From a phage: 64,000 nucleotides of DNA. Shown piece after piece: positions 244 to 24,189 of the stretch. Position 1 is the first letter of the stretch. Every line of letters starts with the position of its first letter. The stretch is from the sequence record NC_100372.1. One strand, written 5' to 3'. Made by a program: the position numbers and the translations under genes. The notes beneath the pieces were generated by a model. It searched no databases, was not told the origin of the DNA, and saw only the letters and a list, made by a program, of their open reading frames with translations.

Positions 244-316
244 TACTAACCTCTGTTCCATAGTGAACATAAAACATACAAATCCTTATAGTACAGATGT
301 TTAAGTTTTTACTGGT

Positions 317-667
317 CTAACCAGTTGTTGACATTCGAATAACTTCTTCTGGTGGCAAAACTTTGGAAAATGTGCATCTTTTACCTCTCCCTTGTGTGGA
401 TATTTCAACCACTCCTGCACATTCTAAAGTTTTAACGCACGCTGCTGCTTTTGTTTTCTTTATCCCAACATCTGCTGCAATTTTCCTTGTGCTGGGTGTG
501 AAGCGTAAATTTTCTCCAAGCTTATACCAGTTGTGCAGGTAGCAGTATACGATCTTGTCATATAAGTCAAGAACAACAACCTCCCCAGTTGTGTCATTCA
601 AAACTTTTGACATAGACAGTATTTCAAGGGGGACTTTAAGATATAGCAGCTTATCCCCATCTTTCAT
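317..667 (-). CDS. Small putative winged-helix DNA-binding protein
   Basis: 116-aa ORF; helix-turn-helix-like segment STRKIAADVGIKKTKAAACVKTLE; last gene of the minus-strand operon; true start may be internal. Confidence 0.4.
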   Translation of the reverse strand: MKDGDKLLYLKVPLEILSMSKVLNDTTGEVVVLDLYDKIVYCYLHNWYKLGENLRFTPSTRKIAADVGIKKTKAAACVKTLECAGVVEISTQGRGKRCTFSKVLPPEEVIRMSTTG

Positions 668-714
668 ATCTCCTGATTCTCCTTGTGTGGCAATTTTCTT
701 TAAAATAGCAGGGA

Positions 715-1269
715 TTACTCCCCGCTGTCAATAGCAAGACTCATTGCAATACGGTATGCCTCTTCTAATGGTAAGAGTCTCCCCCACACATCCCAACCGA
801 CATCAAACTGCCTGCCAAACAACTGCTGTGTGGTTCCGTGAGCATGACCGAACAGTTGGACTGATCCGTGAGGCTTTCTGTTCCACTTTGCAAACTGGTA
901 ATGGCTCATACAGATCAAATTCTTGTTGTGGCGAAGCTCGTAATAATCTACAACCTCATGACCGAACTCTTTCATAATTCTGACAGTCGTCCTTGTGTCA
1001 TGGTTACCACGAACAAGAATAATATGTCCGTTCAACATATTTAGAACATCTGGAAGCAATTTGTTGATATTCTTATCATTAGTGCACGCAATATCCCCCA
1101 AGTGAAACACAGTGTCTGCAGGTGACACAACAGAGTTCCACTTGGTGATGATTCCCGCATTCATACTGTCAAGATTGTGATCATACTGAGATCTGTGTTT
1201 TTGACATGAGTCGAACTCCATTACCCGCTGGTGGAGAAAGTGTGTGTCGCTTGTTACAAAGTATTTCAT
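715..1269 (-). CDS. Calcineurin-like metallophosphoesterase
   Basis: Motifs in order DTHF (DxH), GDIACTND (GDxxD), GNHD, GHAH. Start trimmed to the Met of MKYFVTSDTHF because the longest ORF overlaps the upstream gene. Confidence 0.7.
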   Translation of the reverse strand: MKYFVTSDTHFLHQRVMEFDSCQKHRSQYDHNLDSMNAGIITKWNSVVSPADTVFHLGDIACTNDKNINKLLPDVLNMLNGHIILVRGNHDTRTTVRIMKEFGHEVVDYYELRHNKNLICMSHYQFAKWNRKPHGSVQLFGHAHGTTQQLFGRQFDVGWDVWGRLLPLEEAYRIAMSLAIDSGE

Positions 1270-1276
1270 ACATTCC

Positions 1277-1687
1277 TCATTTAAGTTTAATGCAGTTTTT
1301 AAGCTGGCGTTCCATACGATCCACAACCCTGTCTGGAACATCATGAATGCTTTTATTACCATGGCGGTTTTCAACCACGATCACGGTATAACTATATCCA
1401 TGACTGATCGCCATGTCAATATATTCTTGCACATATTTTTCTTTTGTAAACGTATTACTTACCACGATACGGTCGTAGCCCATACGCATCATATCTTCTA
1501 CGTTATCTTTGCACCATTTTGCTGCAAGTGTTACTTTACTTGCATCCCAATTGTAATTGCCGTCATCGTCGTACCAGAACATATCGTTCTCAAAATGTGG
1601 ATACAGACCTTCTAAAGATAGCGCATTTGCCAGTGTTGATTTGCCAGACCCTGGTAGACCACGCACGATATATAGCATTTTAGACAT
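1277..1687 (-). CDS. P-loop kinase, polynucleotide 5'-kinase-like
   Basis: Walker A GLPGSGKST at the N-terminus, plus VVSNTFTKEK and VPDRVVDRM segments resembling the T4 Pnk kinase domain as recalled. Start taken at MSKMLYIVRG with a GGAGAG RBS. Confidence 0.55.
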   Translation of the reverse strand: MSKMLYIVRGLPGSGKSTLANALSLEGLYPHFENDMFWYDDDGNYNWDASKVTLAAKWCKDNVEDMMRMGYDRIVVSNTFTKEKYVQEYIDMAISHGYSYTVIVVENRHGNKSIHDVPDRVVDRMERQLKNCIKLK

Positions 1688-1708
1688 AGTAACTCTCCGT
1701 TTTAATTT

Positions 1709-20617: not shown

Positions 20618-20896
20618 ATGAGCTGTGAAAAATCTTTTTTCATTATCATCTACGGTAAGGATAACTGCCCACATTGTGTAAGAGCAAAAGAATTTGCAGC
20701 AAGCAAAGGTATACCTTTCGTATACAAGACGCTCGGTGAAGGATACACAAAAGAAGAGCTTATTGAGAAGTGTAGTCCATTTGTTCCCAGAACGTTGCCT
20801 CAGATCTTCTTGGAAAGCAACCTTGATAGTGTCCACATAGGTGGTGCTGACGATTTCATCTCTTTTGTTAAGAATGGTTTTGGAGAGAAAAAGTGA
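20618..20896 (+). CDS. Glutaredoxin-like redoxin (RNR hydrogen donor)
   Basis: Active-site CPHC in YGKDNCPHCVRAKEF; 92 aa. Confidence 0.75.
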   Translation: MSCEKSFFIIIYGKDNCPHCVRAKEFAASKGIPFVYKTLGEGYTKEELIEKCSPFVPRTLPQIFLESNLDSVHIGGADDFISFVKNGFGEKK

Positions 20897-23016
20897 AAGT
20901 TGTAAAACGGGACGGTAGAGAAGAGGTCTATAACGGAGTTAAGGTAATCAAGGCGGCAGAGTCCGCCTTACTTGAGTCTGGGCATACTGAAGAAGAAGCT
21001 TACCGGATCGCTTGTGCGATTAATGAAGTTGTTGCCAACAATCTACCAACCGACCAGTGCACGATCTCTGTAAAAAATATCCATATCCTTGTTGAAGATG
21101 CTCTTATGGATATGGGTTTAAAATGTGCAGCCAGAGAATATATCCAGTATAGACAGACAAGAGATAATAACAGAGAGGCAGGTGGAAAACTGCTTGCAGA
21201 TATTAGTGGCTTCTTGGATCGAACTTGTGATGAATTTACAAAAGAAAACGCAAATAAGCCCACTAATCATGTACATACTCATCGTGACCTGCTTGCAGGT
21301 ATCCTTAGCAAACACCTTGCATCAACACAGATACTGCCAGATCGTGTCTCCGAAGAGCACAACAAGGGATTCATCCATGTGCATGATCTTGACTATCTGA
21401 TCAGTCCGTTAACAAACTGCTGTTTGGTGAATTATCCGGATATGCTGGAAAACGGATTCAACATTGGCAACGCCCATGTCAGTAAGCCGAAGTCAATAGG
21501 GGTTGCAACAACAATCCTCAGCCAAATCTCTAGTGCAGTAGCTAGTGCTCAATATGGTGGTCAGACCATGAGCCATATTGATCATTATCTGGCGCAGTAT
21601 GCTGAAGCAACCTATGAGAAGAATCTTAAATTTTGTCAGGAACATTGGTTGCCGGATGCTGAGACTGTTGCAATGCAAATGACGGATAAAGACGTGTTTG
21701 ATAGTATGCAAACTTTGCTATACCAAATCAATACGTTAACTTCTGTCAACGGGCAAACCCCATTCATCACATTAAGTTTAGGACTGGATACCTCAATCTT
21801 TGGTAGAATGATTACCAAAAACTACCTGAAAGTCCACAAAATGGGTCTTGGTGAAGAACGTATCACACCTGTGTTCCCTAAGGTGCTGTTCTTCCTGGAG
21901 GAGGGTATCAACATGAACCCCGGGGATCCTAACTATGATTTGAAACGATTAGCTCTGGAATGCTCTGCAGAGCGGATTTATCCTGACTTCGTATCTGTAC
22001 CACTAAATAGAAAAGTGACAGGTTCAACAGAAGGTAATGTCACAAGCATGGGTTGCCGGAGTTTTCTTAGCAAATACAATGACTTGGAAACAGGAGAGGA
22101 GAAATACCTTGGCAGATTTAACTTAGGTGTTGTTAGCCTTAACCTACCAATGATTGCGGCAAAAGCTAAAACGGAAGGTGTTGATTTCTTTGCAGTTCTT
22201 GACGAGTACTTGGATCTGGCATACGAGGCTCATCTTGTAAGGGTTAACCGTCTAAAAGGAACAAAGGCAGGGCAGAACCCCATCATGTGGTGTGAAGGAG
22301 CTCTTGCTCGCCTGGATCCTGAAGAGAGTATTGATAAACTCTTCTATGACGGGTATGCTTCCATAAGTATTGGATATATTGGTGTGTATGAAACCTGCCA
22401 GATTTTAGGCAGAGAGGGAGACAAGTCCTTAGCTCTTGGGATCCTTCAGCACATGAAAGACGCTTGTGATCGGTACAAAAAAGAAAGTGGTCTGGCATTC
22501 AGCTTGTACGGCACTCCTTCAGAGAGCTTGTGCTATAAGGCTGCAACATGTCTAGATCGTGAATATCCTGAAGTGTTGAAGCACGAGCACGAATACCTTA
22601 CCAACAGTTTCCACCAGCCCGTGTGGATCAATAGCTCACCTTTTGACAAGTGGAAGTATGAGGAAGGTTTTGCTATGATCTCTTCTGGCGGTAACATTGG
22701 ATACATAGAAACACCTAACCTGAAAAACAACCTGGATGCTTTGGAATCCCTTGTCGATTTCGGGTATAAACACATTATGTATTTTGGTATTAACCAACCT
22801 GTGGATAAATGTCTTAAGTGCGGATTCTCTGGTGAGTTCAGTGCAACAGCTAAAGGCTTTGTATGCCCAGAGTGCGGAAACCATGAAGAGGGAACGATCA
22901 GTGTGATTAGACGTGTATCTGGGTATCTGTCCAGTCCAAACTCCCGACCTTACAACAAAGGTAAGCAAGCGGAAGTTATAGAACGGGTTAAGCACTACGG
23001 CAGCTGTGGTTGCTGA
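20893..23016 (+). CDS. nrdD: Anaerobic ribonucleoside-triphosphate reductase (class III)
   Basis: 707 aa; N-terminal ATP-cone; C-terminal zinc site CLKCGF...CPECG; glycyl-radical motif RRVSGYL. Confidence 0.9.
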   Translation: MKVVKRDGREEVYNGVKVIKAAESALLESGHTEEEAYRIACAINEVVANNLPTDQCTISVKNIHILVEDALMDMGLKCAAREYIQYRQTRDNNREAGGKLLADISGFLDRTCDEFTKENANKPTNHVHTHRDLLAGILSKHLASTQILPDRVSEEHNKGFIHVHDLDYLISPLTNCCLVNYPDMLENGFNIGNAHVSKPKSIGVATTILSQISSAVASAQYGGQTMSHIDHYLAQYAEATYEKNLKFCQEHWLPDAETVAMQMTDKDVFDSMQTLLYQINTLTSVNGQTPFITLSLGLDTSIFGRMITKNYLKVHKMGLGEERITPVFPKVLFFLEEGINMNPGDPNYDLKRLALECSAERIYPDFVSVPLNRKVTGSTEGNVTSMGCRSFLSKYNDLETGEEKYLGRFNLGVVSLNLPMIAAKAKTEGVDFFAVLDEYLDLAYEAHLVRVNRLKGTKAGQNPIMWCEGALARLDPEESIDKLFYDGYASISIGYIGVYETCQILGREGDKSLALGILQHMKDACDRYKKESGLAFSLYGTPSESLCYKAATCLDREYPEVLKHEHEYLTNSFHQPVWINSSPFDKWKYEEGFAMISSGGNIGYIETPNLKNNLDALESLVDFGYKHIMYFGINQPVDKCLKCGFSGEFSATAKGFVCPECGNHEEGTISVIRRVSGYLSSPNSRPYNKGKQAEVIERVKHYGSCGC

Positions 23017-23079
23017 TACTTGACAAAAGCCACAAGGATGTGGCATATTGTTGTTACACAGTAAACTAGGAGGTGCAGT

Positions 23080-23196
23080 ATGTCGTCAGGTATTTATAAA
23101 ATTTGCAAGTGTGGTTGTCATTGCAATCTTCGTTGGTGCAAGGCACTGGATGATTTTATTTGGCATTGTCCTAAATGTGATGCGGAGTACTTATGA
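23080..23196 (+). CDS. Cys-rich 38-aa micro-protein (MSSGIYKICKCGCHCNLRWCKALDDFIWHCPKCDAEYL), putative zinc ribbon
   Basis: AGGAGG RBS 7 nt upstream; stop overlaps the nrdG start (ttATGA); not in the ORF track because it is under 60 aa. Confidence 0.35.
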   Translation: MSSGIYKICKCGCHCNLRWCKALDDFIWHCPKCDAEYL

Positions 23197-23666
23197 ATAT
23201 TGTCGGATACACAGAAATATCCTACACCGAAGGGCCAGGTCTCAGGACGGCCTTGTGGGTATCTGGGTGCCCACACGCTTGTCCTGGTTGCTTTAATCAA
23301 GCATTTTGGTCCAAAGATAAGGGAAGAGAATTCACCGAAGAAGATTTGCAGAGAATTTTGTCAGATTTGGACAATGAATCTATATGCGGTATTTCTTTGC
23401 TTGGTGGAGAGCCTTTGGCTACGTATAATGAGCCCGGTATTATTAAACTTATGAGGAGAATTAAGGAAAAGTTTGGTGACAAGAAAACTATTCTTGTGTA
23501 TACTGGGTTCACATTTGAGCATATCTCTAGTGATGTTCTTGAGCTGGCTGATATCATCATTGATGGCAAGTATGTAAAAGATTTACCAACAAAGAAACCA
23601 TTCCGAGGCAGCGATAACCAAAGAATGTTTAAAAAGGTAGCAGGCGGTTGGGTTCAGGTTGACTAA
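23193..23666 (+). CDS. nrdG: Anaerobic RNR activating enzyme (radical SAM)
   Basis: Cluster motif CPHACPGC (CxxxCxxC) near the N-terminus; 157 aa. Confidence 0.85.
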   Translation: MNIVGYTEISYTEGPGLRTALWVSGCPHACPGCFNQAFWSKDKGREFTEEDLQRILSDLDNESICGISLLGGEPLATYNEPGIIKLMRRIKEKFGDKKTILVYTGFTFEHISSDVLELADIIIDGKYVKDLPTKKPFRGSDNQRMFKKVAGGWVQVD

Positions 23667-23669
23667 TCG

Positions 23670-23699
23670 TTGACAAAGCTTTGGTAAGTTGGTTATAAT
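23670..23699 (+). promoter_or_regulatory. Sigma70-like promoter
   Basis: TTGACA 23670-23675, 18-nt spacer, TATAAT 23694-23699. Confidence 0.6.
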
Positions 23700-23728
23700 T
23701 ATCGTAATGAAAGCAGAGGAGGTGCCAA

Positions 23729-23842
23729 ATGGCTAAAAAAGCCTTGAAGAAGGCGTACAAGAAAGAGATTGCGCTTGAGCTTAAGAAAAAACACAAGCGT
23801 GAAAAGAAATATCATGAAGATGAAGAGGGGGTGCAGCAGTGA
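23729..23842 (+). CDS. Lysine-rich 37-aa peptide (MAKKALKKAYKKEIALELKKKHKREKKYHEDEEGVQQ)
   Basis: GAGGAGG RBS upstream; overlaps the GTG start of the next ORF; below the ORF-track threshold. Confidence 0.3.
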   Translation: MAKKALKKAYKKEIALELKKKHKREKKYHEDEEGVQQ

Positions 23843-24189
23843 CACAAGAGCGTATTGATTTAGCCAGTAAGTTTGTAGATCTCATTTTGCCACGGTTGGT
23901 TACTCAACATGCAGACGCTATTTCTACCAATCTTGATGGCTTACGCCTAATGCTGAACCGAACAGATGACCCACGTATTCGGGCCGATTTAGAGGCCTCT
24001 GCCAACAAACTGGAAAAGTTCTTGCAAGTAGACACGCAAGAAGCCTTGCACAAGATTATGGTGGAAGGTTTCTCTAAAGAATTCACCGTTAAAGAGCTTA
24101 AGGAGCTGATCCGCCAAGAAGAGATGAATATCCGAGTTCAGGCTGTTGCAAGCAGCATGGAAGCGGCTATTGAAAAACTGTTGCAGTAA
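23839..24189 (+). CDS. Hypothetical coiled-coil protein
   Basis: 116-aa ORF (track start is a non-ATG codon), helical/charged composition. Confidence 0.4.
   Translation: MTQERIDLASKFVDLILPRLVTQHADAISTNLDGLRLMLNRTDDPRIRADLEASANKLEKFLQVDTQEALHKIMVEGFSKEFTVKELKELIRQEEMNIRVQAVASSMEAAIEKLLQ

Follow-up and report, generated by a model that had tools for sequence, protein, structure and literature searches.

Several described systems bear comparison with the phage micro-protein considered here. Zinc ribbons, such as those of the Rpb9 and TFIIS C-termini, eL43, the Zn(Cys)4 site of NrdD, the haloarchaeal CPxCG proteins, and ZifS of T. thermophilus, resemble it in having two Cys "knuckles" flanking a β-hairpin, which is predicted in the case of the micro-protein. 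Its forms of 38-54 aa are also comparable in size to zinc ribbons and small zinc-finger micro-proteins. However, it differs from the zinc ribbons in having three extra conserved Cys (C13, C15, and C20) and in its first knuckle, which is CxC in the type present here and CxxC in forms of 41 and 54 aa. Another comparison is offered by YfaE, a small 2Fe-2S ferredoxin encoded in the nrdAB operon of E. coli, and by the rubredoxins. Like these, the micro-protein looks like a small Cys-rich redox or metal protein, it is encoded inside a ribonucleotide reductase (RNR) gene cluster, and it has a rubredoxin-like knuckle. However, no sequence similarity to them is detected, the micro-protein is about half the length of a rubredoxin, its Cys pattern and inter-knuckle spacing differ, and its distribution is not tied to RNR. 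Finally, the com gene of phage Mu encodes a small Cys4 zinc-finger protein and overlaps mom, whose translation Com activates. The micro-protein is likewise small and Cys-rich, and its gene overlaps the start of a downstream gene; unlike Com, it is encoded at a junction lacking stable or covarying RNA, it has no Pfam match, and its ORF is kept when uncoupled from the downstream gene.

The nrdD-nrdG junction and its annotation

The window (the whole stretch of phage DNA analyzed, 64,000 nt, sequence record NC_100372.1) comes from a Vequintavirus, an rV5-like coliphage. Over the region from nrdD to nrdG (20893..23700), it shares 99.8% identity with Escherichia phage vB_EcoM-ECP26 and 90% or more with about 120 Vequintavirus (rV5-like) records. 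Locally, the genes follow the order nrdA, nrdB, glutaredoxin, nrdD, the mini-ORF encoding the micro-protein, nrdG, a 37-aa ORF, a 116-aa ORF, and phoH. The features of the junction are as follows.

20893..23016, + strand: nrdD, catalytic subunit of the class III RNR (PF13597, 2.7e-161; Gly_radical; ATP-cone)
within 20893..23016, + strand: NrdD's own C-terminal zinc ribbon, CxxC...CPxC
23020..23049, + strand: candidate σ70-like promoter, TTGACA-18 nt-CATATT with TG before the -10 (consensus scan, 10/12 matches)
23029..23044, no strand assigned: 6-bp GC-rich hairpin GCCACA-AGGA-TGTGGC within the promoter spacer (terminator-like scan of both strands)
23068..23073, + strand: AGGAGG Shine-Dalgarno of the mini-ORF, 6 nt before its ATG (direct reading)
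23080..23196, + strand: mini-ORF, a 38-aa, seven-Cys micro-protein of phrog_20137 (sequence, PHROG match, selection)
23184..23187, + strand: GGAG Shine-Dalgarno of nrdG, inside mini-ORF codons Ala35-Glu36 and 5 nt before the nrdG ATG
23193..23666, + strand: nrdG, 157-aa radical-SAM activase of the class III RNR (TIGR02491 equivalog, PF13353, PF04055)

The mini-ORF begins with ATG and encodes MSSGIYKICKCGCHCNLRWCKALDDFIWHCPKCDAEYL (38 aa), which has Cys at positions 9, 11, 13, 15, 20, 30, and 33 and His at positions 14 and 29. Thus, an earlier note on this DNA, which credited the protein with nine Cys and two His, was right about the His; the Cys number seven. The same note correctly described an AGGAGG ribosome binding site and an overlap between the stop of the ORF and the start of nrdG: the TGA at 23194..23196 and the nrdG ATG at 23193..23195 share an ATGA (23193..23196). 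The assignment of nrdG itself is secure at the equivalog level (TIGR02491, 149.8 bits against a cutoff of 126.1; PF13353, 4.5e-43).

The earlier note considered the ORF to be unannotated, which is not the case. An identical protein is present in GenBank and UniRef (QDB73550.1 / A0A4Y5TVX8), on 74 contigs, under the name hypothetical or uncharacterized protein, and the micro-protein matches the phrog_20137 HMM (PHROGs v4) over its full length (E 4.6e-30, 104.4 bits, residues 1-38 on positions 1-38 of 38). The mini-ORF is therefore not new but already catalogued as a hypothetical protein. That it lies below ORF-calling thresholds holds for several records: it is omitted from the annotation of Murica, nimi, O157 typing phage 14, and ACG-C91, and the original rV5 annotation calls the +1 frame (ORF114) in its place. 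However, most records do annotate it, ECP26, JES2013, NHEP1, and YP-6 among them, so it does not uniformly escape ORF callers. A search of the literature yielded nothing on the mini-ORF, nor were transcript or proteomic data for it found.

Although phrog_20137 is the family of the micro-protein and carries the label "ribonucleotide reductase", the protein resembles no RNR subunit. Some depositors have named it after the adjoining gene, and the label looks to have been inherited from annotations of the neighboring gene, such as "putative anaerobic ribonucleoside-triphosphate reductase". Annotation pipelines carry this label into new phage annotations, for example those of NHEP1 and MiataMamis. 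The label "DNA ligase" given to the mini-protein family phrog_13972 likewise appears to be derived from a neighbor rather than from homology.

The surroundings of the locus are polymorphic for homing endonucleases. In O157 typing phage 14, a 386-aa protein with DUF723/T5orf172 domains is encoded between nrdD and the mini-ORF (279..1439 of locus L005), and nrdD is split by HNH endonuclease genes in FV3, slur16, FFH2, and others. Over the locus, about 18 records of "Campylobacter phage" (MG0656xx; C. jejuni given as host) share at least 92% identity with rV5-like phages of E. coli, which suggests that these are mislabelled or contaminant assemblies. Just 3' of nrdG, the window contains a second micro-gene (23670..24189): a σ70 promoter with a perfect, 12/12 match to consensus (23670..23699) and then an AGGAGG precede a 37-aa, Lys-rich ORF (23729..23842; phrog_7670, of unannotated function), whose stop overlaps the start of the 116-aa ORF (phrog_7650) as GTGA. 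This Lys-rich protein is 97-100% conserved in the relatives checked.

Coding signature and distribution

The mini-ORF is a genuine gene under strong purifying selection at the protein level, with nearly every core residue fixed. In a comparison of ten distinct vequintavirus alleles, the frame of the mini-ORF has a pN/pS of 0.13 and the other two frames have 0.88 and 1.63; pairwise dN/dS lies between 0.04 and 0.2. The variable columns number 12, 4, and 24 of 36 at the first, second, and third codon positions, respectively; 24 of the 38 residues are invariant; and all length changes are in-frame, such as a three-codon insertion in O157 typing phage 14. A second lineage, represented by contigs of ~137 kb, encodes a 54-aa form with a K/E-rich, N-terminal extension of about 15 residues. 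Between this lineage and the mini-ORF, synonymous sites are saturated (17.3 of 19.7 changed) at a dN of 0.12. The core of the micro-protein is nevertheless 88% identical, compared with 53-57% for NrdG, 48-49% for PhoH, 33% for the 116-aa neighbor, and 76-86% for the NrdD C-terminus. Across 39 distinct variants, C9, C11, C13, C15, C30, and C33 are invariant, and C20 is replaced by Ser in one. In contrast, His14 (S, R, K, or E) and His29 (Y) both vary among homologues and are therefore unlikely to be metal ligands. An 82-aa ORF with a TTG start (23048..23296), which lies in the +1 frame used by rV5 ORF114 and overlaps both the mini-ORF and the nrdG start, was also considered and was rejected at a pN/pS of 0.88.

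Could the mini-ORF nonetheless be a chance ORF without a protein product, its Cys-richness a matter of composition? Counts of 7-9 Cys per 38 residues are also seen in antisense frames elsewhere in the window, and one relative has a nonsense codon in the ORF while another has a frameshift. Since the antisense frames are equally Cys-rich, Cys-richness alone is not beyond chance; it is conservation together with selection that makes the ORF real. The frame-specific selection, the 88% protein identity at saturated dS, the in-frame indels, the strong and conserved Shine-Dalgarno, and the presence of intact copies in about 120 records and hundreds of metagenomic contigs all speak against chance, and given the pattern of substitution we regard this reading as refuted and its probability as negligible. 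The conservation upstream of nrdG that the earlier note proposed to look for is likewise found: the arrangement with the ATGA overlap is kept in about 85 records, and disruptions of the ORF in close relatives are rare.

Phage nimi carries a natural nonsense allele, in which the TGC of Cys9 is TGA (1225..1227 of locus L013, MN850626) at an otherwise intact locus; this is possibly a natural knockout or a sequencing error. In phage Alma, a frameshift alters the last three codons. Together, these alleles indicate that phages can form plaques without the mini-ORF, at least under laboratory conditions.

The family is tiny and consists of one phage group (rV5-like, Vequintavirus-type) plus one transfer. 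By tblastn, the mini-ORF is found in about 120 vequintavirus records and in one podovirus, and it is present on hundreds of metagenomic contigs. An index of 5.8 billion proteins, queried with the 38-aa protein plus two native, upstream in-frame residues, yields nine clusters, and of 1.84 billion representatives searched exhaustively with a HMMER profile, only the two that belong to the family itself are matched. IMG/VR contributes three loci and metagenomes five, while 185,579 bacterial and archaeal genomes contain none.

The transferred copy resides in the SP6-like podovirus vB_EcoP_ACG-C91, a single phage represented by two records. This 36-aa form is 77% identical, retains all seven Cys, and has a dN/dS of 0.06. 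It lies between a nucleotide kinase gene and the gene for an ATP-dependent DNA ligase (PF01068/PF14743; 3998..4108 of locus L004), and it overlaps the ligase start as ATGA. The DNA similarity begins at the ATG of the mini-ORF and stops at the downstream start codon, and no RNR homologue was found in the ACG-C91 genome. Because the copy is known from a single phage, it could be recent and not yet decayed. A shared "MNI" at the start of NrdG and of the ACG-C91 ligase raised the idea of co-transfer, which was rejected: the N-terminus MNIFQF is native to the ligase in all Vectreviruses compared, including that of K1E, which lacks this ORF.

The same slot in other Vectreviruses is occupied by unrelated proteins. 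K1E (773..889 of locus L017) and ten other phages (11 records) encode there a 38-aa CxxC...CxxC protein, and vB_EcoP_B encodes a 57-aa protein without Cys (773..946 of locus L018). Thus, the kinase/ligase junction is hypervariable, with no fewer than three unrelated mini-ORFs (two Cys-rich and zinc-ribbon-like, all ATGA-coupled to the ligase gene), and it can be viewed as a cassette slot for small accessory genes. The K1E protein shares the slot, the length, and the ATGA coupling of the ACG-C91 copy, and its second and third ligand Cys have the 19-residue spacing of the 54-aa form (counted from the sequences). However, it has only four Cys and is an ORFan of 11 records; in a test for homology between the two, hhalign aligns only 8 columns (probability 37%).

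Predicted fold and expression signals

The invariant pattern of the micro-protein is K-x-C-K-(x)-C-G-C-x-C-N-L-R-W-C ... D-D-x-I-W-x-C-P-x-C-x-x-E-Y. Within it, the two knuckles, C9-x-C11-G (C-x-x-C-G in the 41- and 54-aa forms) and C30-P-x-C33, are unchanged in all 39 variants. AF2 models of the 38-aa and 53-aa forms (mean pLDDT 65 and 60, respectively) both contain strands at 16-20 and 25-30; a third strand, at 35-37, appears only in the 38-aa model, where the CPxC knuckle falls between the last two strands. Sequence and models together thus present the two knuckles, separated by a predicted β-hairpin, that characterize a zinc ribbon. About half of the top 20 Foldseek matches, all non-significant, are zinc-ribbon domains (Rpb9, a NUDIX N-terminal ribbon, ZifS), and a sequence search of the PDB, again with nothing significant, picks out the eL43 knuckle IWHCPKCG and a haloarchaeal "small CPxCG-related zinc finger protein" (E 0.17). 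Given the Cys pattern, the AF2 strands, and these ribbon-type matches, the micro-protein is read as probably a metal-stabilized, zinc-ribbon-like protein, with zinc as the most likely metal. The extra Cys may form a second or shared metal site, an assignment of ligands that we infer.

Neither solved structures nor Pfam families show a statistically significant resemblance to the micro-protein. It has no match at E ≤1 in Pfam and none in NCBIfam, and neither the 38-aa nor the 53-aa form matches the defense and anti-defense models of PADLOC-DB at E ≤10. For rubredoxin (PF00301) there is no Pfam match at E ≤1, and the knuckles are 18-19 residues apart versus about 29.

Expression of the mini-ORF would be served by signals in the 63-nt spacer that follows nrdD. 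The candidate σ70-like promoter there has the same sequence in rV5, whose depositors annotate similar σ70-type promoters nearby. The hairpin within the promoter spacer is a possible weak terminator after nrdD; it is not conserved in O157 typing phage 14 or at locus L006 (of the 54-aa lineage), where the spacer has other hairpins. The Shine-Dalgarno of the mini-ORF is AGGAGG at most of the vequintavirus loci read and TGAGG, AAGGAG, or AGGAGA at three. The internal GGAG is kept in all homologues of the mini-ORF and in ACG-C91 serves the ligase gene. As read from this arrangement, the stop/start overlap should couple translation of the mini-ORF to that of nrdG. No Rfam family matches the junction region, and shuffled controls fold more stably than the junction RNA (z = +2.1). 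Its consensus fold leaves the nrdG start codon unpaired and contains a single covarying pair. Together, these features argue against an unmasking of the start codon like that by Com.

Relation to nrdG and candidate roles

The position of the mini-ORF directly upstream of nrdG led the earlier note to propose a zinc-ribbon partner or metallochaperone for the anaerobic RNR. The zinc-ribbon-like Cys pattern stands; a dedicated partnership with RNR is not supported. In phi92, whose NrdD and NrdG are annotated as >83% similar to their PVP-SE1 counterparts, nrdD overlaps nrdG directly by 4 nt with no mini-ORF between them, so that the vequintavirus arrangement looks like an insertion into that junction. 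In rV5 and 32 other records (33 in total), an intact mini-ORF ends in TAA and is followed by ~385 bp with two small ORFs before nrdG. The nrdG allele of these 33 records is only 55% identical, whereas the micro-protein differs at just three variable positions. Overlapping junctions are, moreover, generic in this genome: 31 of the 75 same-strand junctions overlap (41%), 10 of them by exactly 4 nt. The association with nrdG thus looks positional rather than functional, although gene order next to nrdG has survived the saturation of synonymous sites between two lineages, for which a functional link, and not plain descent, could be responsible.

The ~385-bp insert (1318..1701 of rV5 locus L011, DQ832317; also at loci L020 and L022) contains a 34-aa ORF and a 78-aa ORF. 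The latter is annotated as "putative minor capsid protein" and has its own ATGA coupling to nrdG. In this arrangement, nrdG is a mosaic, in which the N-terminal half is very divergent and the C-terminus near-identical.

A dedicated accessory of the class III RNR might deliver or buffer metal (Zn for the NrdD ribbon, Fe/S for NrdG), act as a miniature, rubredoxin-like electron donor to the [4Fe-4S] cluster of NrdG, or, while the glycyl radical is generated, imitate the zinc ribbon of NrdD or dock with it. Such a role would fit a position between nrdD and nrdG that is maintained, with its overlap, in the ~85 records and in the divergent 54-aa lineage; the resemblance of the knuckles to the rubredoxin/zinc-ribbon pattern CxxCG...W-x-CPxC; and the precedent of YfaE. 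In addition, the ACG-C91 copy could act on the NrdDG of E. coli. However, NrdG homologues occur in 2,236 phage records, and the mini-ORF is absent from more than 2,100 of these other phage nrdG loci, phi92 included, so that the co-occurrence with nrdD/nrdG across phages that would mark such an accessory is not observed. The micro-protein is nearly unchanged (three substitutions) and uncoupled where it lies near the 55%-identical nrdG of the 33 records, and in the podovirus without RNR it sits beside a ligase gene. It has no match at E ≤1 to rubredoxin or any other Pfam family, and no Pfam or NCBIfam match at this threshold that would indicate homology to NrdD (PF13597) or NrdG (TIGR02491/PF13353). 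An origin from the C-terminal ribbon of NrdD was also considered: hhalign lines up both knuckles, but at a probability of 9% this was rejected as evidence of homology. Since the E. coli host has its own NrdDG, the idea of an RNR partner is weakened rather than refuted, and we judge a dedicated accessory to be unlikely. A role in cis, as a leader ORF or as a translational activator of the downstream gene (nrdG, or ligase in ACG-C91) in the manner of the Com zinc finger, is more doubtful still. The stop/start overlap and internal GGAG are conserved, in ACG-C91 as well, what was passed between phage families coincides exactly with the ORF as far as the downstream ATG, and Mu com provides a precedent. 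Yet the invariance of 24 of 38 residues, at a dN/dS of ~0.1, is more than a pure leader would require, and the ORF is intact though uncoupled in the 33 records with TAA and the 385-bp insert. The Com zinc-ribbon model was not matched, and no inhibitory RNA stem was found to cover the downstream start site: the protein matches no Pfam family, Com included, the junction matches nothing in Rfam, the junction RNA is less stable than its shuffles and has only one covarying pair, and the predicted structures leave the start codon unsequestered.

The direct adjacency of a short, Cys-rich peptide and a radical-SAM gene also brings to mind a RiPP precursor of the SCIFF/ranthipeptide type, modified by the neighboring enzyme. 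This reading fails because that neighbor is an equivalog-level, 157-aa NrdG with no SPASM auxiliary-cluster match in the Pfam scan and because ACG-C91 has the peptide without a match to the window's radical-SAM NrdG. Furthermore, the peptide has no NCBIfam match, and its conservation extends over its whole length with no division into leader and core; we consider a RiPP precursor extremely improbable.

The explanation that we favor, with moderate confidence, is that the mini-ORF encodes a genuine, 38-residue micro-protein of rV5-like phages, a metal-stabilized ribbon that functions as an autonomous binding module and not as a dedicated RNR subunit. It persists whether or not it adjoins nrdG. 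In such a protein, the N-terminal C-x(1-2)-C-G-C-x-C cluster and the C-terminal C-P-x-C knuckle would clamp a small, three-stranded sheet, and the six invariant Cys together with the nearly invariant Cys20 would make up one Cys4 site and, probably, another metal site that is partial or shared. The mini-ORF would be co-transcribed with nrdG from the σ70-like promoter in the nrdD-nrdG spacer, and ribosomes that finish at its TGA may re-initiate at the overlapping nrdG ATG, aided by the internal GGAG. Its position upstream of nrdG would have arisen when a small accessory gene was inserted into an ancestral nrdD/nrdG overlap junction. Since the micro-protein is also present in an SP6-like podovirus that lacks RNR, a target shared by both infections is the most parsimonious; our best guess is an E. 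coli host component or nucleic acid, bound by the micro-protein as a small module on its own rather than as a third subunit of the phage anaerobic RNR. A version in which the micro-protein is a third component of class III RNR, a metal- or electron-handling partner of NrdG or NrdD, and acts on both phage and host enzymes would explain its presence in an RNR-less podovirus of the same host; we think this distinctly unlikely.

As it stands, the micro-protein is an ordinary, uncharacterized phage ORFan and no discovery about RNR biology. The locus does flag an annotation problem, in that the PHROG label "ribonucleotide reductase" spreads without supporting homology. The mini-ORF has also evidently crossed between a myovirus lineage and an SP6-like podovirus, as a cassette that matches the ORF precisely in size. 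If characterized, its product would be one more functional phage micro-protein of less than 40 aa, with an unusually dense Cys pattern and a sequence that is almost fully constrained.
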